A stretch of DNA of 57,931 nucleotides from a virus (lineage: Duplodnaviria; Caudoviricetes). The position numbers and the translations under genes are program-made. The notes beneath the pieces were generated by a model, which made no database searches, was not told the origin of the DNA, and worked only from the letters and a program-made list of their open reading frames with translations. The stretch is taken from positions 1 to 57,931 of IMG/VR virus record IMGVR_UViG_3300027763_000069; one strand, given 5' to 3'. Each line of letters starts with the position of its first letter. Position 1 is the first letter of the stretch. This document shows, piece by piece, positions 33,831-49,810 of this stretch.

Positions 33831-35108
33831 TTAAGCGTTTTCGATCTTTACTGTTGATACAGTAGTTGAACCAAAAACCCACTTAGCACCTTGGCCATTT
33901 TCAAACAGCCATGACGCTTCACCGTTTTGGGTATTACGAGTCAATCTTACTCTGTGTGCTGTTAGTTTGGTAACAAAGTATGTGTTGCCGTTATTGTCAG
34001 TAGCAGTAATGTATGCTTGATTTGCATCAGGTGTAGCATCTGCAACTAGTTTGCAAACTGCAATACCATTTGCTGTCTTAACTTTATAGCTACGAGCATT
34101 AACTTGACGAATAATGTCGCCAATTTCTACGCTAGCTTCAACATCAACTTTAGCGCGAATGATAATTGCATTTTCTTGATTAGTAGCTGAACCAACTAGA
34201 CCGCTGTCAGTTGTTAGAACTGCTGTTGCGGCTGCGCCCGTTGATCCGCTGAATGTTACAGCGGCATCTGCTGGTGCTGTATAACCAGAACCTCTTTGAG
34301 ATACTATAACACTTAATAGTCCCATTGTAATGTCTGCTTTGGCTCCGGCGCCAGTTGCTGGAGAAACTGATGTTAATGTACCTGCGGTACTAGTACTTGG
34401 GAATGATGTGTAATCGCCTGCTACAGAAACTGTACCAAATGCGTAAACACCCCAAATGCTTGATGGGAAAGAAAGTACTAACCCGATACCGTTGGCGTCG
34501 CCACCTGGAAAGCCTGCGATTGTAGTTGCCGAAAACCCGCCTACACCGTCGGCCATGCTAGTTGGAGCACCAGCGCCGTTCCATACACCTGCTTGAACAA
34601 CAGAAATTGTTAATACTGAACTTTCATCAACTGTTTCAACTTGAACAATCAATGGTGTTGTCAAGTTGGCATGTTCAAATCTGATTCTGTCGTTTTGAGT
34701 GCCTCTTAAATCATACTGTGAGCCACCGTTGGCAACTGTTGGGATTCCCATTGTAGTGATGCTTGCTACCGGAGCACGAGCTTTAGTTGTAGCTGTGCCG
34801 GTATATACTTCTAATACGTCACCAACTGCGTAACCTGTACCGTTGGCTGTTGTAGCAAATGATAGTGCTTTATAGTGTGCTGTACCTGCAACAGTAACTC
34901 CGCCTGGAATATTAGGTGCGCTAAATGTCACTGTTGGAATAGTTGTCCAACCTGATCCTGCTACGATTGAGCCGTAACTTGCTACACCTTCTCCGCCAAT
35001 ACGATCATCAGCGTAGTTTTGATTGTTTGCATTATTTCCAGTGATTTGATTACCACCAACACCTACGTTGCGGTTACCAAAATATTTTTTATTTAAAGGA
35101 CGAGCCAT
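33831..35108 (-). CDS. Putative structural protein (425 aa, MARPLNKKYFG...)
   Basis: Strong AAGGAG SD, own late promoter; GSGW/GTGY/GSGY beta repeats; function not recognised. Confidence 0.75.
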   Translation of the reverse strand: MARPLNKKYFGNRNVGVGGNQITGNNANNQNYADDRIGGEGVASYGSIVAGSGWTTIPTVTFSAPNIPGGVTVAGTAHYKALSFATTANGTGYAVGDVLEVYTGTATTKARAPVASITTMGIPTVANGGSQYDLRGTQNDRIRFEHANLTTPLIVQVETVDESSVLTISVVQAGVWNGAGAPTSMADGVGGFSATTIAGFPGGDANGIGLVLSFPSSIWGVYAFGTVSVAGDYTSFPSTSTAGTLTSVSPATGAGAKADITMGLLSVIVSQRGSGYTAPADAAVTFSGSTGAAATAVLTTDSGLVGSATNQENAIIIRAKVDVEASVEIGDIIRQVNARSYKVKTANGIAVCKLVADATPDANQAYITATDNNGNTYFVTKLTAHRVRLTRNTQNGEASWLFENGQGAKWVFGSTTVSTVKIENA

Positions 35109-35203
35109 TTTGTTTTCTCCTTAAGAAATCACGGCGTTCTAGGCCGTACGCGGTTGCTGTTCCGCATAAAACTTGCACCATGCAAGCCATACAAAGTATT
35201 TAT
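35109..35203 (-). promoter_or_regulatory. Late promoter ATAAATA (35197-35203) followed by a three-hairpin 5' leader
   Basis: Stems CUUGCA/UGCAAG, UAUGCGG/CCGCGUA and ACGGC/GCCGU, then UUUCUUAAGGAG SD. Confidence 0.6.
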
Positions 35204-35659
35204 CTAGTTTACTAAGTTAAAGGCTAGGCTTATTCTGTTTTCACTAGATTTGTTGGCTAACACTCTGTGCTCTGTACCGCTAGGAAATATCAATAACAAA
35301 CCTGTATGAGGAGTTATAGCTGATACTTGATTGTTCATTTTAAACTCTATATCTCCGCAGTTCTCAGATGTTTGTAAGTATAATACACCCACAGTCGTTG
35401 CTGTTCCGTGACTGTGCCATCTATGATGTCCCCCTGTGGGATTAACATTAAACCAAAATTTATGTACTGGCTTAGATGCAGTCATTGCCTTAAGGCAAGC
35501 TGTTACTGTAGATTCTGCCCAATCTAATTCTTTAAAGTTTCCGTATTGTTTTGACTGCCAACCCGATATATTGCTTCTATTATCCGAAGGATACTTAGAT
35601 TGCAGTTTATAGATTTGGTCTATGATGTCAGGAACGGCTAGAGTGTATTGCTGTATCAT
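35204..35659 (-). CDS. Putative 2OG-Fe(II) oxygenase
   Basis: WFNVN..GG.H.WHSH...GVLYL...GDIEF...P..G.LLIFPS..EHRV..N.S...RISLAFN: HxH...H...RxS double-stranded beta-helix pattern. ATG at 35659 preferred to TTG at 35662. Confidence 0.85.
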   Translation of the reverse strand: MIQQYTLAVPDIIDQIYKLQSKYPSDNRSNISGWQSKQYGNFKELDWAESTVTACLKAMTASKPVHKFWFNVNPTGGHHRWHSHGTATTVGVLYLQTSENCGDIEFKMNNQVSAITPHTGLLLIFPSGTEHRVLANKSSENRISLAFNLVN

Positions 35660-39448: not shown

Positions 39449-39500
39449 GTTATGTCTCCTGTATAGTTATGAGGCAGTTACGCCCGCAAGGCTGTCGATG

Positions 39501-39507
39501 TATTTAA
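39501..39507 (-). promoter_or_regulatory. Late promoter variant (TTAAATA) for the core/protease/scaffold/capsid operon
   Basis: Minus strand ATTAAATAC directly after a terminator, ~50 nt upstream of the ATG at 39448. Confidence 0.6.
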
Positions 39508-39516
39508 TACTACTGT

Positions 39517-39538
39517 AAAAAAACCGGTCAATACCGGC
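39517..39538 (-). terminator. Rho-independent terminator after the 78 aa gene
   Basis: Minus strand GCCGGT-ATTG-ACCGG followed by T7; a T-run on the plus strand as well, so possibly bidirectional. Confidence 0.8.
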
Positions 39539-39565
39539 TGTTTTTTGTCAGTTTTGATGATTTAA

Positions 39566-39802
39566 TTATTCTGCGGCCACTGGGGTGGCATACATTCTAG
39601 AAATAAACTCCATTTCTGCTTCATGTTCTTTAATATGTAAATCACTTGCCCTGCGTAATTCGTTGATTTGTTTTAAGGTCAAACGTGTTTTACGTGTGTC
39701 ATCATCGCTGATAACACTGGTGTCATGTTTAGTCATATACTGGTCATCTTGTTCAGACTTGGCAGTATCTCTATTAAAATAAAACAGTTCTCTTAAAATC
39801 AT
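39566..39802 (-). CDS. Small head-module protein (78 aa)
   Basis: Between portal and core genes; DTRKTRLTLKQINELR motif; own late promoter. Confidence 0.75.
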   Translation of the reverse strand: MILRELFYFNRDTAKSEQDDQYMTKHDTSVISDDDTRKTRLTLKQINELRRASDLHIKEHEAEMEFISRMYATPVAAE

Positions 39803-39807
39803 AATAG

Positions 39808-39814
39808 TATTTAT
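39808..39814 (-). promoter_or_regulatory. Late promoter (ATAAATA) 5 nt upstream of the ATG at 39802
   Basis: Minus strand ATAAATA-CTATT-ATG overlapping the portal stop codon. Confidence 0.65.
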
Positions 39815-45599: not shown

Positions 45600-45788
45600 A
45601 TGGTGGACCATATAGATAATGAAGCCAAAAATTTCAAACTAGAATTATATAAGTTAGCGTGGTATATGAGAGGTGCGATTTCCATGGAAGACGCATTTTA
45701 CCTTACCTACGAGGATAGAGAAATCATTGGAAAGATTGTTGAAGACAATCTTGAAACAACCAAGAAAAGTGGACTGCCTTTCTTTTAA
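45600..45788 (+). CDS. gp51-like / GT-like chaperone C-terminal segment, probably made as a frameshift fusion
   Basis: LAWYMRGAISMEDAFYLTYEDRE pattern; no SD before ATG 45600; frame open back to the slippery site. Confidence 0.7.
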   Translation: MVDHIDNEAKNFKLELYKLAWYMRGAISMEDAFYLTYEDREIIGKIVEDNLETTKKSGLPFF

Positions 45789-46879
45789 GCTAGTCCAACT
45801 TTCTTTTCAATAGCGGCAATGCGCTGTTCTAGACTGGCAAGATCAGGACTTGCTTTAGCTTTGCCAGTAAACCCTTTCTTTAATCCAGCGGCAAACCCAC
45901 CACCCGATGAAGATTTAGAAGTGTCTGTGGCATCAATGTCACCGTCACCATCTGTATCAGTAGGTGCACCACCAGCTAAGTTAGCTGATTTTGTTTGTTG
46001 TGTAGATGTTTTACCTTGCTTAGTGTTCATTATCTCTGCTTCTTGAGCAGCCTTGAGTATAGCTTTGTCAATAATACTCTGTGGTAAAACACCAGGACCT
46101 GCTTCTGCCAATGCATTGCCACGATTAATTTTACCTGCTGATACAGCTTTACGTTTTTTAATCTTATCTGTTGCTGACTGTAGGAAACCTGGCTGTTCTG
46201 GTTCAGCTTGTGGAGATTTATTTGTAGTAGGATTAGTAGTATTTGGAACTCCGCCAACTGACTTAGGATCCATTGGCTCAGATGTATTCTTCATTGTGTT
46301 ACGATCAAAACCAGTAGATCTATTATAAGTTGCTTGCCCGCCACCTAGTTGATTATTAAAACTGCCACCTGTCTTAGTAGGAGCAGCCGCTGTAGTATCA
46401 GCAGGAGCAGTAGTTGTTGGAGTTTCATCGCCCATTGTTGGCTCAGTTCTATCTATTGGAGTTGCCTTAAGTCCAGGTTTCATCTTATCTGCTATGTTAC
46501 CCGCTTGTTTAACCATTGCGTCTTTGGCTTTACCAACAAGTCCTCGTGCAGTGTTTTTCATGTTGGCTAACGGACCAGCAGGGGCATTAGCCGCGCCTTT
46601 AAGTGCAGTATTAATAATAGTTGCCGCGCCCTGTGTAGGATATCCTTTACTTGACAAGAAACCCATAACAGCATCTTTAGTAGCTTCACGCCCAGTCTTA
46701 CCTAAATATGTTTGAAACTCTTTGTGAAGTTGATTAGCTAAACTACCTGTACTAAGTTTACCCGTAGCTCGAGCATTACCTAATTTAGACATAGCCTTAT
46801 TACCTAGAGTATTCAGCATACCCATAGGTGCTTCTTGCACTTGTTTCTTATCTTCTAATAGAACTTCGTATAGCTTCAT
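45785..46879 (-). CDS. Hypothetical late protein (364 aa), possible internal head protein
   Basis: Perfect late promoter and AGGA SD; N-terminus MKLYEVLLED..VQEA with LxE motifs; low-complexity linkers. Confidence 0.75.
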   Translation of the reverse strand: MKLYEVLLEDKKQVQEAPMGMLNTLGNKAMSKLGNARATGKLSTGSLANQLHKEFQTYLGKTGREATKDAVMGFLSSKGYPTQGAATIINTALKGAANAPAGPLANMKNTARGLVGKAKDAMVKQAGNIADKMKPGLKATPIDRTEPTMGDETPTTTAPADTTAAAPTKTGGSFNNQLGGGQATYNRSTGFDRNTMKNTSEPMDPKSVGGVPNTTNPTTNKSPQAEPEQPGFLQSATDKIKKRKAVSAGKINRGNALAEAGPGVLPQSIIDKAILKAAQEAEIMNTKQGKTSTQQTKSANLAGGAPTDTDGDGDIDATDTSKSSSGGGFAAGLKKGFTGKAKASPDLASLEQRIAAIEKKVGLA

Positions 46880-46903
46880 AATTGTATTCCTGAACAGTTA
46901 GTA

Positions 46904-46911
46904 TATTTATA
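46904..46911 (-). promoter_or_regulatory. Late promoter, perfect TATAAATA
   Basis: Exact consensus 24 nt upstream of the ATG at 46879. Confidence 0.8.
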
Positions 46912-46924
46912 TCGGGATGTATGT

Positions 46925-47012
46925 AGATGTACTGCGTACATCTGTGTTTCGCTTTCGCTCACACTATTCTTCTTCTTTCTTATTATGTACTTATGATTTA
47001 GTGCGAAGCACT
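46925..47012. repeat. Cluster of short inverted repeats with GNA/GAAA loops and a purine/pyrimidine tract
   Basis: Minus AGATGTAC-GCA-GTACATCT (46925-46943); minus GTGT-GA-GC-GAAA-GC-GAA-ACAC (46944-46964); plus AGTGC-GAA-GCACT (47000-47012); TTCTTCTTCTTTCTT tract between. Confidence 0.75.
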
Positions 47013-47015
47013 TAA

Positions 47016-47376
47016 GATATTATCTAGATTGTTCAGTCACACTTTGCCCAGGCAGGGCAAAGATTTAAACGACATTATCTGAGTTGAACATGTCACACTA
47101 GCGTTACTGCATTACAGTGGCGGTTGTCCGGTACCACGAGCAGAGTCTTTATCACAACGGCGGTGTGCAAATATACGCTAACATACGTACACACGTAGGG
47201 TATTTCTCCCTTCCTTCTTGCCTTGAAGTTTTATAACAGCAAAACCGCGGCATTTGCGATCGTCGTCCTGTTAAGGATAGTTGCTGAGCACTCTTAACGG
47301 CAAGAGATTCCCCTCCCTGTGATCCGAGATCCAGGTTTCCGGGCACTAGATATTAGCCAGTGCGAGCTTTAACCGT
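47016..47376 (-). ncRNA. Candidate large structured non-coding RNA
   Basis: At least nine stems read by eye in a gap with no credible ORF; several contain G-U pairs only in the minus orientation; loop-distal complementarities suggest pseudoknots. No known family recognised. Confidence 0.55.
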
Positions 47377-47811
47377 TTATTTTGCCTGAGATTGTTCTAA
47401 AAGACGTTGCCTGAGTATGTTTGATCCGCCGACTCTGACATTTATAATACCATTATAATAGTCATCAGACTCTAAAACTCTGCGTTCAAATTGCTCTCTT
47501 GCCTCTAGATATGACATTTCTGCCTTGGATTTGCAAAGGTAAAGTATTTCTCTTGTAAAATGTTCTGGACCTAATGCTTGGACGTCTGCGTTTAACCTGT
47601 CAGATGAACCATAGTATTCGCGCCAATCGCTTTCTACTACACTTCTTCTTTTGAGTTTTTTGCCTTTGAGTGGGGGTTTAGTACGCTTAAACTGCGCTAG
47701 TTTCTTGCCTATGTACTTTTGTCCAGTTTTGAGATTTGTAATGATATAGACAAAACCAATATGATCTTCTGGTATTTCGTCTAATGGTTGATGTTGATAA
47801 ATCCATTGCAT
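47377..47811 (-). CDS. Stand-alone GIY-YIG family endonuclease
   Basis: GFVYIITNLKTGQKYIGKK...YYGSS...FTREIL..C.....YLE..EQF...YYN: GIY-YIG fold with the conserved E and N; no C-terminal DNA-binding domain. ATG at 47811 preferred. Confidence 0.9.
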   Translation of the reverse strand: MQWIYQHQPLDEIPEDHIGFVYIITNLKTGQKYIGKKLAQFKRTKPPLKGKKLKRRSVVESDWREYYGSSDRLNADVQALGPEHFTREILYLCKSKAEMSYLEAREQFERRVLESDDYYNGIINVRVGGSNILRQRLLEQSQAK

Positions 47812-47814
47812 CAA

Positions 47815-48045
47815 CTAGTTATCGTCACTATCCTCTTCGTTGCCTTCATTTTGGATTCCGTGTATTAGATTTTTCTTTGCCTGTATTTCTGCTCGCCGAA
47901 TCATTATTAGTCTGCGTATTTCGCCTAGAGCTACTCGTGCTTTAACAGCACTTTCTTTATAACCGTGGAGCTCAAATCGAGTACTCCATTTAGAGTACTC
48001 CATGAACTCTCTAATGATCAGCTCGTGAGTATCAATGTCACTCAT
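47815..48045 (-). CDS. Small helical protein resembling the histone H1-like Hc1 family
   Basis: F...GYKESAVKARVALGEIRRL...RRAEIQAKK resembles the GNKAA..RAR..L.E pattern; ATG 48045 overlaps the gp46 end. Confidence 0.55.
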   Translation of the reverse strand: MSDIDTHELIIREFMEYSKWSTRFELHGYKESAVKARVALGEIRRLIMIRRAEIQAKKNLIHGIQNEGNEEDSDDN

Positions 48046-49810
48046 AGATCTCAACGTCATTTGCATAAGACGTAAAGCCATTTTCTTTGATTACCTTGAG
48101 CACGTTGTTCACTCGACCCACTAATTCGTCCCTATGAGAGATTAGATAAATGTTCTTATTACGTTCCCGAGCCATCTTTTTAAGAATACCAATAGAGTTT
48201 TCAACTCCGTTGGCATCCATGCCGGAATCAATAAGTTCATCTATGAATAAGAGATTGATGTTTTGATATAACGACTCCCAAACATCACGGAACGCCCACG
48301 ACAATCCTAAGATTAAGCGATTCCTTTCTCCTCGTGACAAGTTATCGAAGTCGAGATCTTGCCCGAGTTGGGTTATTTCTACCGTTAGGTCATTTTGGAA
48401 TACAACGGTGTGAGGTAGACCCACCTTATCAAGGTAATAGGTTAGTCGATTATTCAAGTAAGCAAGATTCTGATCAATGATCTTCTTACGAATAAACGAA
48501 TCTTTAGAGGTTAGAAGTTTTAATAAAAACTCCTGATGTTCTTTCATAAGATTTAAACTGTTAACTGTGTCCCAGTTTATCTCTTGTAGAGCAGTATGCT
48601 CTAGTTCTGTAATTTGTTCTTGGTATGTATCAACTTCTTCTTGCTTGTTTTTCAACTGGACACCAAGACTTTCTAAATTTGTTCTATGATTAAATGCTTC
48701 GCTAAGGCTGTCGTAGAAGGTTTTAGGGCGACCGTTAATATCTCCGATGGCTTCTAGTTCTGTAACTAACACTTCTAAGTCCTCTGCTACTTTGGACATG
48801 TATGTATCTGAATCAGCAAGGTTTTTCTCTGCTAGCTTTTTCATCTCATCATGCTTGTGATCGTGTAGTTCTTGGTCACATGCTGGACATTTATTAGCTT
48901 CTAACTGTGCTATTTCTTTTTGATATTTCTTAACTGACTTATCTGCTTGCATAAGTGCAGTTTCAAGTGTGGCCTTTTCTTTATTAAGACTCTTAATTAG
49001 TGCGGCTTGTTCATCGTAGACTTTTAACTTTTCGTGTTGACTGATTTCTGCATCAATATCAACCTGTGCAAGCTCTGCAATAGCTTCTTCAATCTTTTTA
49101 ACATCACTATCGCGGTTCTTTTGCCACATGCCCTGTTTAAGTTTTAGACTATTGATGCTTTCTTGTATGCGCTCATTAGAACGCTTGATAGCTTCAATAC
49201 GAGCACCTTCTTGCACTACTTCTTCTTTGCTAATACGGATCTGTTCTTTAAGTGCTTCTGCCTTTTCACTTAGAATAGTAATACCCAATAACTGCTCAAT
49301 AATAGCACGTTGATCATTGGCCTTCATACTCAAGAAAGGTTCTGTATAGGTGTTTAAAGCTACAATATGCTTGAACATGTCGTGACTCATACCCAACAGA
49401 GCATCAATGTCTTTTTGCGTTTCGCGACTATCGCCTTGTCCGTCATCTGCGGCTTCTTGTTCTTGATCGTCAATATAAAACTTAAGAATGTTGGGTTTAC
49501 GACCACGTTCAATCTTATAAAGAATGCCGTCTTTTTCGAACTCAACAGTAACTAACATGTTCTTGCTGTTGATCTTGTTGATTAGGTTATCTTTCTTGAT
49601 ATTAGTCAGCGCATTGCCAAAGATAGCATAGCTAAGTGCGTTAACGATAGTTGTTTTACCTGTACCGTTACGACTTCCGCTGTCATCTCCGCCTTGATCT
49701 AAGTTCTCACCTAGTACAAGCGTAAGATGACCCTTCTTAAAGTCTACTGCCTGCGTGGCATTTCCCACGCTCATAAAGTTTTTAACTGTTAGGTCTTTTA
49801 TTTTTATCAT
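48038..49810 (-). CDS. gp46: Recombination nuclease ATPase subunit (gp46, SbcC/Rad50-like)
   Basis: KNFMSVGN, Walker A NGTGKTT, CPAC zinc hook within coiled coil, LSRGE signature, LLFIDE Walker B, ISH. Confidence 0.95.
   Translation of the reverse strand: MIKIKDLTVKNFMSVGNATQAVDFKKGHLTLVLGENLDQGGDDSGSRNGTGKTTIVNALSYAIFGNALTNIKKDNLINKINSKNMLVTVEFEKDGILYKIERGRKPNILKFYIDDQEQEAADDGQGDSRETQKDIDALLGMSHDMFKHIVALNTYTEPFLSMKANDQRAIIEQLLGITILSEKAEALKEQIRISKEEVVQEGARIEAIKRSNERIQESINSLKLKQGMWQKNRDSDVKKIEEAIAELAQVDIDAEISQHEKLKVYDEQAALIKSLNKEKATLETALMQADKSVKKYQKEIAQLEANKCPACDQELHDHKHDEMKKLAEKNLADSDTYMSKVAEDLEVLVTELEAIGDINGRPKTFYDSLSEAFNHRTNLESLGVQLKNKQEEVDTYQEQITELEHTALQEINWDTVNSLNLMKEHQEFLLKLLTSKDSFIRKKIIDQNLAYLNNRLTYYLDKVGLPHTVVFQNDLTVEITQLGQDLDFDNLSRGERNRLILGLSWAFRDVWESLYQNINLLFIDELIDSGMDANGVENSIGILKKMARERNKNIYLISHRDELVGRVNNVLKVIKENGFTSYANDVEIYE

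Follow-up and report, generated by a model that had tools for sequence, protein, structure and literature searches.

On the minus strand of a 57,931-nucleotide (nt) stretch of viral DNA (IMG/VR virus record IMGVR_UViG_3300027763_000069, positions 1 to 57,931; Duplodnaviria, Caudoviricetes), hereafter called the window, we find a conserved structured RNA of about 452 nt between a GIY-YIG nuclease gene and a hypervariable downstream gene. Its 5' third is the Polynucleobacter-1 motif catalogued in Rfam as RF01718, whose 141 positions cover the 5' domain and no more of the conserved RNA. We are highly confident that this is a real structured RNA that extends RF01718. Our reading of the whole, taken with the role we assign to it, is that of a stand-alone RNA of about 450 nt that acts in trans and has RF01718 as its 5' domain; we give this complete statement a probability of roughly 0.55. 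A first-pass annotation, made from the letters of the window, had proposed a novel large, pseudoknotted noncoding RNA at 47016-47376, and its individual claims are considered with the results that bear on them.

The catalogued motif is the 5' domain of a larger RNA

Positions 47234-47368 (minus strand) match RF01718 over model positions 1-141 of 141 with 105.8 bits, against a gathering score of 37 (expectation value [E] 6e-22). The whole window was scanned against Rfam 15 at gathering thresholds, and 46800-47500 was rescanned at E up to 5. Only two matches in the whole window exceed their gathering scores, RF01718 and RF02980, and beyond RF01718 the rescan yields four matches of 13-19 bits (E 0.55-2.3) whose gathering scores are 33-70. 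No covariance-model match to GOLLD, ROOL, OLE, HEARO, raiA or the other large RNAs of Rfam 15 was found for the gap RNA. The region 3' of the motif (47233-46926, here called the 3' body) finds no match in Rfam 15, either in the window (E up to 5) or in a bacterial copy (E up to 1).

In the printed model alignment, the consensus helices of RF01718 are the GCACUGG/CUAGUGC, CCUGGAUC/GAUCACAGG and CUCUU/AAGAG stems and the three-way junction that the first-pass annotation had drawn. These helices are upheld by base-pair changes among relatives (helices 2-7 of our pair count, 88-100% paired, with changes on both sides in 21 of 36 pairs). The 5' strand of a pseudoknot that we call PK1 lies 4-9 nt upstream of the first model position (47368), so the catalogued model cannot contain PK1. 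The annotation had suggested Rfam as a check on its proposal, and the full-length match to RF01718 removes the claim of novelty for the 5' 135 nt (47234-47368). The claim survives for the PK1 strand (47372-47377) and for the 3' body, both unmatched in Rfam 15. The 3' body seems to be undescribed in Rfam 15 and in the literature found, and pieces of it may sit among the 8,495 short candidate RNAs (29-151 nt) predicted from IMG/VR according to the available excerpt of PMC10690425.

Covariation extends from the nuclease stop codon to a late promoter

Relatives were collected with a 19-base pattern of conserved letters from helix P2 and the junction, which found at least 119 stretches in viral contigs; among the matches listed, the motif is present by eye in 117, and two (L067 and L074) are chance matches. 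We aligned sets of 58 and 79 non-identical sequences, and all pair counts refer to the 79-sequence MAFFT alignment (A1). The structure was written as 104 pairs in 20 helices, with three crossing helices, and pairs were ranked by mutual information with average-product correction. Columns of PK2, H13 and the outer part of H14 were mapped from another locus (L008), as the window has local insertions there. Two other guides to structure were set aside: a naive helix finder permitting G-U pairs gave mostly noise, and mutual information was used in its place; thermodynamic z-scores were uninformative, the plus strand folding slightly better.

In both alignments, conservation spans the region from the nuclease stop codon to the late promoter, and the flanks (the spacer upstream of the nuclease gene and the downstream open reading frames [ORFs]) are unconserved. 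As written, 92.4% of cells are paired, compared with 36.8-41.7% when partners are slid by 1-3 columns. Changes on both sides of a pair (double changes) occur in 72 of 104 pairs as written and in 30-36 with slid partners, and the covariation score is 0.374 as written and 0.055-0.076 when slid by 1-3 columns. None of 500 shuffles attained any of the observed values, and the pairs of highest mutual information are nearly all Watson-Crick pairs of the helices listed below. G-U cells outnumber A-C cells by 588 to 192 across the structure, and the minus strand is therefore the RNA strand.

These counts bear out much of what the first-pass annotation had proposed from a single sequence: a sizeable RNA with pseudoknots, read from the minus strand in the same orientation as the gp55-gp47-gp46-nuclease genes, with G-U pairs that would be A-C on the plus strand. 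The covariation among homologues that it had asked for is strong (the 72 double-changed pairs, from 79 distinct sequences). Every helix it listed is found at the minus-strand coordinates it gave, and all but one are backed by the 78 other distinct sequences. The one that fails is a CGG/CCG stem, in which C47130 is A in about one-third of sequences, uncompensated, and C47123 is used by the covarying crossing helix H9. The annotation also stopped too early, at 47016, where conserved structure in fact continues to 46926. The elements of the RNA, in 5' to 3' order, are as follows.

46926-47377, minus strand: whole conserved structured RNA, about 452 nt, from the PK1 strand to the last conserved hairpin, defined by covariation in 79 distinct sequences.
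47372-47377, minus strand: PK1 5' strand AACGGU, pairing with the P3 loop (47296-47301); helix 1 of the pair count, 91.6% paired.
47234-47368, minus strand: 5' domain (P1-P6), the RF01718 match; helices 2-7, 88-100% paired.
47343-47363, minus strand: P1, GCACUGG/CUAGUGC; double changes in 5 of 7 pairs.
47316-47335, minus strand: P2, CCUG-GAUC/GAUC-A-CAGG; 6 of 8 pairs invariant, 2 covarying, 99.2% paired.
47291-47306, minus strand: P3, CUCUU/AAGAG; double changes in 5 of 5 pairs.
47281-47286 with 47237-47242, minus strand: P4, junction stem CAGCAA/UUGCUG; double changes in 4 of 6 pairs, 100% paired.
47266-47277 and 47243-47261, minus strand: P5 and P6, arms of the three-way junction; UCC/GGA and GAUCGC/GCGGUU kept.
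47197-47211, minus strand: H6, AGGG/CCCU; double changes in 4 of 4 pairs, 98.7% paired.
47163-47194, minus strand: H7 and H8, GUGUGUAC.../...UUGCACAC with an inner stem (GUGUGUA/UGCACAC in the first-pass annotation); double changes in 12 of 13 pairs.
47176-47181 with 47098-47103, minus strand: PK2, UUAGCG of the H8 loop with CGCUAA/G; double changes in 6 of 6 pairs, 98.1% paired.
47107-47158, minus strand: knotted three-helix module H9-H11; helices 11-14 of the pair count.
47154-47158 with 47123-47127, minus strand: H9, crossing H10 and H11; double changes in 3 of 5 pairs.
47140-47143 with 47107-47110, minus strand: H10, CUGC/GCAG; double changes in 4 of 4 pairs.
47134-47137 with 47117-47120, minus strand: H11, GUGG/CCAC; double changes in 2 of 4 pairs, the other 2 invariant.
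47073-47098, minus strand: repeat R1, GUGUGAC-N7-ACUC-NN-AUAAUG, with NN at 47080-47079.
47042-47062, minus strand: H12, CUUUGCCC/GGGCAAAG, between the repeats; 84.8% paired, 2 pairs double-changed.
47018-47042, minus strand: repeat R2, GUGUGAC-N6-AUCU-NN-AUAAUA, with NN at 47025-47024.
47000-47012, minus strand: H13, with UNCG-type loops in relatives; 72.8% paired, double changes in 3 of 4 pairs.
46944-46964, minus strand: H14, with an inner C-GNNA-G hairpin at 46951-46958; 87.9-100% paired, double changes in 4 of 5 pairs of outer H14.
46926-46942, minus strand: H15; 80% paired, double changes in 6 of 7 pairs.

The outer bounds given are those of the conserved structure. Within the 5' domain, the P1 pair G47358-U47348 is not kept (unpaired in 63 of 79 sequences), and one further covarying pair, 47280/47264, reads CG in 59 and GC in 20. 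The single strands AUAAAGAC and ACCGCC are conserved within the H9-H11 module. The weakest helices are H13 and H15, and H12 is affected by slips of alignment register in A1, being 95.9% paired on alignment A2. As an intrinsic terminator H15 would be atypical: at least 5 T occur within the next 8 bases in only 4 of 73 sequences, and a terminator scan listed none on the minus strand at H15. A conserved GGUACC was considered as a kissing palindrome and rejected, its variants GGUACA, GGUAUA and GGUAUC being non-palindromic.

Three pseudoknots

Two possible pseudoknots in the first-pass annotation are confirmed by compensatory change. In PK1, which joins loop GCCGUU to AACGGU, the pair 47376/47297 reads AU in 26 sequences, UA in 24 and GC in 18. 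In PK2, all 6 pairs are double-changed, and one reads UA in 40 and CG in 38. H9, which crosses H10 and H11, is a third pseudoknot that the annotation had not listed; its pairs 47156/47125, 47155/47126 and 47154/47127 are among the top mutual-information pairs. On a maximum-likelihood tree, pairs of PK1 changed at least 14 times (47376/47297) and at least 4 times, pairs of PK2 at least 10, at least 14 and at least 5 times, and the three H9 pairs at least 9, 7 and 8 times; the counts come from parsimony on a single quick tree built from a short region, and tree errors could inflate them.

The PK1 strand overlaps the nuclease stop codon (47377-47379) in the window. In nearly all loci, the end of the nuclease ORF falls 8-14 nt short of the PK1 strand, within it or slightly beyond it. 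With the stop codon so close, a terminating ribosome would be expected to cover PK1.

Two direct repeats change together by identity, not complementarity

The repeat module of the first-pass annotation is likewise present: R1 and R2 are direct repeats of about 26 nt, 55 nt apart, with H12 between them. The variable dinucleotide NN has the same letters in R1 and R2 in all 79 aligned sequences and in 102 of 102 readable loci (GG in 55, AG in 34, GA in 10 and GC in 3). By position, 47080 equals 47025 (GG in 53, AA in 26) and 47079 equals 47024 (GG in 68, AA in 8, CC in 3), and a third variable position is also identical between repeats (47076 and 47021; AA in 72, GG in 7). The NN state underwent at least 14 concerted changes on the tree, compared with 27-35 in five shuffles. 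The fixed difference between the repeats (CUC in R1, UCU in R2) is retained across relatives, which argues against simple gene conversion.

We found no partner complementary to R1 and R2 with matching NN within the RNA. Across all loci, a search for a complementary NN partner gave about 20 non-trivial matches, where 18.9 are expected per control dinucleotide, and in the window the sole matches are the opposite strand of the repeats themselves. Several readings of the repeats were dropped because support was inconsistent: sigma-70 promoters, anticodon-loop mimics, short frames ending in UAA or UGA, and a pairing of UGUUCA with UGAACA. CGAAA replaces AUAAU in the bacterial repeats, and the flanks show no covariation.

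Repeats that covary by identity are not explained by ordinary base pairing and pose a concrete structural puzzle. Because both repeats present an identical dinucleotide, R1 and R2 most likely contact either one two-fold partner or each other, like with like. Through at least 14 joint changes the dinucleotides have stayed identical and are in no case complementary, which could point to a contact that is parallel or homo-base-paired, or to an RNA that assembles as a homo-oligomer.

The RNA occupies one fixed locus of one phage clade

The RNA lies in a 497-nt gap without ORFs (46880-47376). The first-pass annotation had called this the only long intergenic gap; the window in fact has three ORF-free gaps that reach 150 nt (497, 365 and 220 nt), of which this is the longest. 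The surrounding features are as follows.

Upstream of the RNA, in order, minus strand: genes for a gp55-like late sigma factor, an SbcD-like protein (gp47) and an SbcC-like protein (gp46), an 88-codon ORF, and the GIY-YIG gene.
47377-47814, minus strand: GIY-YIG nuclease gene, 145 amino acids (aa), SegE-type domain only (Pfam PF19835, E 2e-37, residues 4-124).
46904-46911, minus strand: late promoter motif TATAAATA of the T4 type, read from the sequence, separating the RNA from the next gene.
45785-46879, minus strand: gene downstream of the RNA, a 364-aa ORF without Pfam or PHROG match, at a position that is hypervariable in the clade.

Among the matches listed, 107 of 117 other loci have a GIY-YIG homologue whose end lies directly 5' of the RNA, most of the proteins being 50-62% identical. 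In the remaining 10, two are cut by contig ends, five have the gene 750-1870 nt upstream with an ORF between, and three have no homologue. On the same basis, gp46 lies upstream of the RNA in 103 of the 117, gp47 is present in 83, and a baseplate hub gene lies downstream on the opposite strand in 66. In most loci the next ORF starts 404-464 nt past the search pattern and is 189-719 aa long, and the version of the downstream gene found in the window has homologues in only 3 of the 117. The gene order of the clade is gp47, gp46, small variable ORFs, the GIY-YIG gene, the RNA, a late promoter and a hypervariable late gene. Each of five long records (145-365 kb, one of them 364,554 nt and estimated complete) holds one copy of the RNA. 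Because the gene order is conserved and each long record carries one copy, the RNA is one fixed locus of one clade rather than a roaming cassette. The carriers appear to be freshwater T4-like jumbo phages. A blastn search of the 497-nt gap against 50,697 cultured phage records gave zero matches.

The window belongs to a virus record with a completeness estimate of 16%. A relative with the same locus (L079) is a 364,554-nt record estimated to be 100% complete, and the 16% of the window fits a genome of such size.

We take TATAAATA to be the T4 late promoter consensus. Of 100 loci, 69 have the exact motif in the interval from the last hairpin to the next ORF, 23 have one-off variants there and 8 lack it in any form; its background frequency is 16 in 4,864 windows (0.3%). 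The downstream gene therefore has a late promoter of its own, placed 3' of the RNA. In 35 of 55 distinct N-termini of that gene (loci L002-L120), the protein begins M-[K/R]-I-x-[E/D]-[L/I]-[L/I]-x-E; the window reads MKLYEVLLED. Such an N-terminus resembles what we understand to be the short capsid-targeting sequence of T4 internal proteins. If this likeness is true, the locus would be one of injected, fast-evolving proteins under a late promoter.

The upstream gene belongs to the SegE-type GIY-YIG family by both its PF19835 match and its GIY, YIG, Arg, Glu and Asn residues, to which we presumptively assign their usual catalytic roles. The motif residues G.VY, Y.GKK, RE, E..QF and YN are kept in at least 95% of 84 distinct nuclease sequences. 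Nuclease identity is 50-60% across the clade, where that of gp46 is 65-75%. Homologues occur in 694 cultured phage records, the closest being Methylophilales phages of the Melnitz group (Kyanoviridae in the record; 62.8% identity). The protein (47377-47814, minus strand) also matches PHROG 447, which is labelled "NAD synthetase", a product name carried by many deposited phage records; given the Pfam placement, that name is probably a propagated misannotation.

Two further observations concern the window outside this locus. The second-longest stretch without an ORF of at least 80 aa on either strand (39449-39813, 365 nt) has no Rfam match at gathering thresholds. A freshwater-2 RNA (RF02980) lies at 35106-35187 (minus strand; 71.9 bits, gathering score 49.9), ends at the point where an ORF with an AAGGAG ribosome site begins (start codon 35108-35106), and is preceded by a late-promoter-like TAGATAAATA (about 35195-35204).

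Copies in Burkholderiales lack the nuclease

Bacterial copies were sought in 151 genomes of the order that holds a Limnohabitans metagenome-assembled genome (Burkholderiales), and RF01718 scores over its cut-off in 4 of the 151. In the three bacterial loci with flanks (L154 G050:C4, L155 G003:C19 and L156 G001:C226), a block of about 510 nt is conserved, with a GATAAATAA-like box at one end and an R2-like repeat at the other, followed in two loci by H14- and H15-like hairpins, the H14-like element reading GAGCGNNAGCGAA. The R1- and R2-like repeats carry CGAAA in place of AUAAU, and their NN is identical within each locus (AG/AG, GG/GG and AU/AU). Layout and motifs compared by eye, with a three-sequence alignment, suggest that the phage and bacterial 3' bodies are homologous.

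The four RNA-bearing bacterial genomes contain no match to the GIY-YIG protein, and no nuclease gene lies beside the bacterial RNA loci. A divergent DUF6641 gene is found upstream of the RNA in all three loci with flanks, and the downstream gene is YbjN-like or uncharacterised. One locus includes an integrase-family gene and a 1331-aa gene that is helicase-like by sequence reading only. The setting looks like a mobile or defence island. We considered DUF6641 as a common partner of the RNA and rejected it; extra copies occur elsewhere in the same genomes, and the window has none.

A model of the phage 3' body, 199 positions long, scores 198-205 bits on phage copies. Scanning bacterial genomes with the search pattern gave 28 matches, 25 of them chance by eye, with the motif present only in L124, L130 and L145. 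L124 and L130 are 1.5- and 2.0-kb contigs of one Bacteroidetes metagenome bin; they score 198-200 bits with the 3'-body model and are probably phage DNA misbinned into a bacterial genome.

The locus is represented in RNA libraries

Twenty public runs hold part of the stretch, six of them RNA libraries, and those listed either were sampled from water (fresh, lake or aquatic) or bear just the label "metagenome". For four of the RNA libraries, each from a different study, contigs were aligned to 45700-49000. Both the RNA and the nuclease gene are covered in pieces, and a contig of 212 nt agrees with 47194-47405 at every position. Such contigs are assemblies, blind to ends, strand and level, in which uncovered parts are uninformative and DNA carry-over is possible, and they lend weak support to transcription.

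A stand-alone RNA and its alternatives

We propose that the RNA would form the tail of the gp46/GIY-YIG transcript or start at a promoter inside the end of the nuclease gene. It probably appears together with the early and middle recombination genes or shortly after them, independently of the late gene that follows. Once folded, it most likely acts in trans, and by analogy it would either scaffold an RNA-protein particle or form an assembly of RNA only. Phages and islands in the host order both carry the RNA, which also lies beside a fast-evolving gene; its setting is therefore most likely phage-host conflict. A bolder form of this proposal, which we regard as possible but speculative, holds that Polynucleobacter-1 is the head of an undescribed class of ornate RNAs of about 0.5 kb, with like-with-like repeats, that would serve as a free-standing RNA machine in phage-host conflict. 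Its carriers would be freshwater jumbo T4-like phages and Burkholderiales islands.

Several observations weigh against the proposal. The trans-acting scaffold role and the conflict setting are drawn by analogy. The minimum free energy of the 361 nt of the first-pass annotation, which had suggested comparison with shuffled controls, is undistinctive (z of -1.32 on the minus strand and -2.36 on the plus strand). The phage 3'-body model gives no significant match to the bacterial 3' regions, its best right-place match scoring 8.9 bits (E 0.44). The assembled contigs of the RNA libraries do not show transcript ends, strand or abundance. In most loci H15 lacks a U run (4 of 73 have it), and early read-through into the next gene is possible. 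No late promoter lies between the RNA and the downstream gene in bacteria, where a leader role is possible. Nearly all loci place the nuclease stop no more than about 15 nt from the PK1 strand, which could reflect coupling to the nuclease gene. Finally, the motif is tentatively listed as cis-regulatory in the part of the table of Weinberg et al. 2010 (PMC2864571) available to us, if its columns mean what we take them to mean.

Alternatives to a stand-alone RNA are, by weight, a leader or riboswitch, a nuclease-linked RNA, an intron or ribozyme, a DNA element, and a small protein gene. We consider it unlikely that the RNA is a cis-regulatory leader whose 5' domain, with its three-way junction and pseudoknot, senses a ligand or protein while the rest sets downstream expression. 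A same-strand gene does follow the RNA in both phages and bacteria, and this fits with the listing and the read-through just mentioned. However, the RNA is probably not the leader of the next gene because a T4-type late promoter lies downstream of the RNA, in 69-92 of 100 loci depending on whether one-off variants are counted. The tentative role in the 5' untranslated region is thus not seen in the phage loci, which argue against the motif's cis-regulatory label; membership in RF01718 stands regardless. In addition, the downstream genes are mutually unrelated (that of the window occurs in 3 of 117 other loci; those of bacteria are YbjN-like or uncharacterised), and the 3' 310 nt match the 5' domain in conservation and covariation, a pattern that does not suit an expression platform. 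Searches of the RNA and the loci gave R1 and R2 no alternative partner to pair with.

A functional tie to the nuclease, either as a 3' untranslated element coupled to termination or as a targeting subunit like HEARO or omega RNA, also appears rather improbable. The adjacency noted by the first-pass annotation is real: the gene is directly 5' of the RNA in 107 of the 117 other loci listed, with its stop codon no more than about 15 nt from the PK1 strand and overlapping it in the window. The protein keeps its GIY-YIG motif residues, and a 145-aa chain with its domain at residues 4-124 has no space for a separate DNA-binding domain. Beyond position, however, the link does not hold, as each partner occurs without the other. 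Among the 694 cultured records with the protein, the closest, the Melnitz phages, carry the nuclease gene at another locus with a gap of only 148 nt after it, and have no RF01718 match at E up to 1 in the genome; the four bacterial genomes have the RNA and lack the nuclease gene both nearby and elsewhere. Five phage loci have an ORF between gene and RNA and three have no homologue. Synteny is conserved over the whole region, and adjacency may simply be inherited. No variable, guide-like segment is seen apart from the NN dinucleotides, and the RNA is probably not a guide for the nuclease.

It is very unlikely that the RNA is catalytic, or the 3' part of a group-I-like intron or ribozyme travelling with a homing-endonuclease gene. 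GIY-YIG genes of T4 reside inside group I introns, and the RNA is large, pseudoknotted and begins at the end of the nuclease ORF. No intron or ribozyme in Rfam matches at E up to 5, though, and the unconserved spacer between gp46 and the nuclease leaves no 5' half. Relatives align with gp46 over residues 1-590, so this gene is not split. The downstream gene has its own promoter and start, and the RNA keeps a fixed locus, with one copy per genome and bacterial copies that lack the nuclease.

We find it highly improbable that the conserved unit is DNA, such as a replication origin, iterons or promoters with the repeats as binding sites. One protein reading two sites would give direct repeats 55 nt apart with identical variable letters, and the locus lies at the border of replication/recombination and structural genes. 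Against this, compensatory changes spread across about 100 pairs, with G-U cells exceeding A-C cells 3:1, are the signature of single-stranded RNA, the GUGAC-AUAAU spacing of 10-11 nt misfits a sigma-70 promoter, and a promoter scan found none there. A small protein gene is extremely unlikely: the window has a GTG-start ORF of 64 codons (47152-47346) and 21 of 79 sequences have ORFs of at least 60 aa in the region, but the longest ORF has a median of 41 aa, the relatives share no common frame, the GTG belongs to the conserved P1 stem, no Pfam or PHROG match exists, and variation tracks base pairing rather than codons.

Few large intricate RNAs of no assigned function are known from bacteria and phages, and each has been a source of new RNA biology. 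Here an orphan motif of 141 positions from 2010 becomes a target of about 450-510 nt with three pseudoknots, more than 100 natural variants and a defined genomic address in an abundant clade of freshwater jumbo phages; together these features make the RNA amenable to direct testing. If the RNA belongs to the phage-host arms race, it would be an RNA player beside a hypervariable phage locus.

Comparison with known systems

The upstream gene resembles the SegE-type free-standing GIY-YIG genes of T4-like phages in its match to PF19835, and differs from them in being a stable resident of one locus across the clade rather than a sporadic insertion. HEARO and the omega RNAs of IscB and TnpB are nuclease-associated RNAs, and like them the gap RNA is structured and abuts a small nuclease gene. 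Unlike them, its neighbor has the GIY-YIG fold, RNA and protein each occur alone, no Rfam match links the families, and neither a guide segment nor transposon ends are seen.

The nearest relative is Polynucleobacter-1 RNA itself, with which the gap RNA shares all 141 model positions, including P1, P2, P3 and the three-way junction. In the motif table that includes this RNA, we take the three columns to stand for RNA, cis-regulatory and switch. The available portion of that table, from the paper that first described the motif (Weinberg et al. 2010, PMC2864571), enters it as "y y ?" with the taxa "Burkholderiales, fresh water/estuary", in agreement with the freshwater setting and Burkholderiales copies found here. 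The catalogued model ends after the junction, whereas in the window and in three bacterial loci conservation and covariation continue for at least 310 nt, and the gap RNA has a pseudoknot strand 4-9 nt upstream of the model start. More than 100 of the carriers found here are T4-like phage contigs, and the cis-regulatory label misfits their loci.

In overall character the gap RNA resembles GOLLD, ROOL and OLE, which also span several hundred nucleotides with many helices and pseudoknots, have phage and bacterial carriers, and have no assigned function. It differs from them in being shorter, in lacking a family match, and in the absence of tRNA genes from the window. The ornate RNAs of this type form homo-oligomers, according to the available text of Kretsch et al. 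2025 (PMC12286853), and by analogy such assembly would offer one possible account of the matching repeats in the gap RNA.

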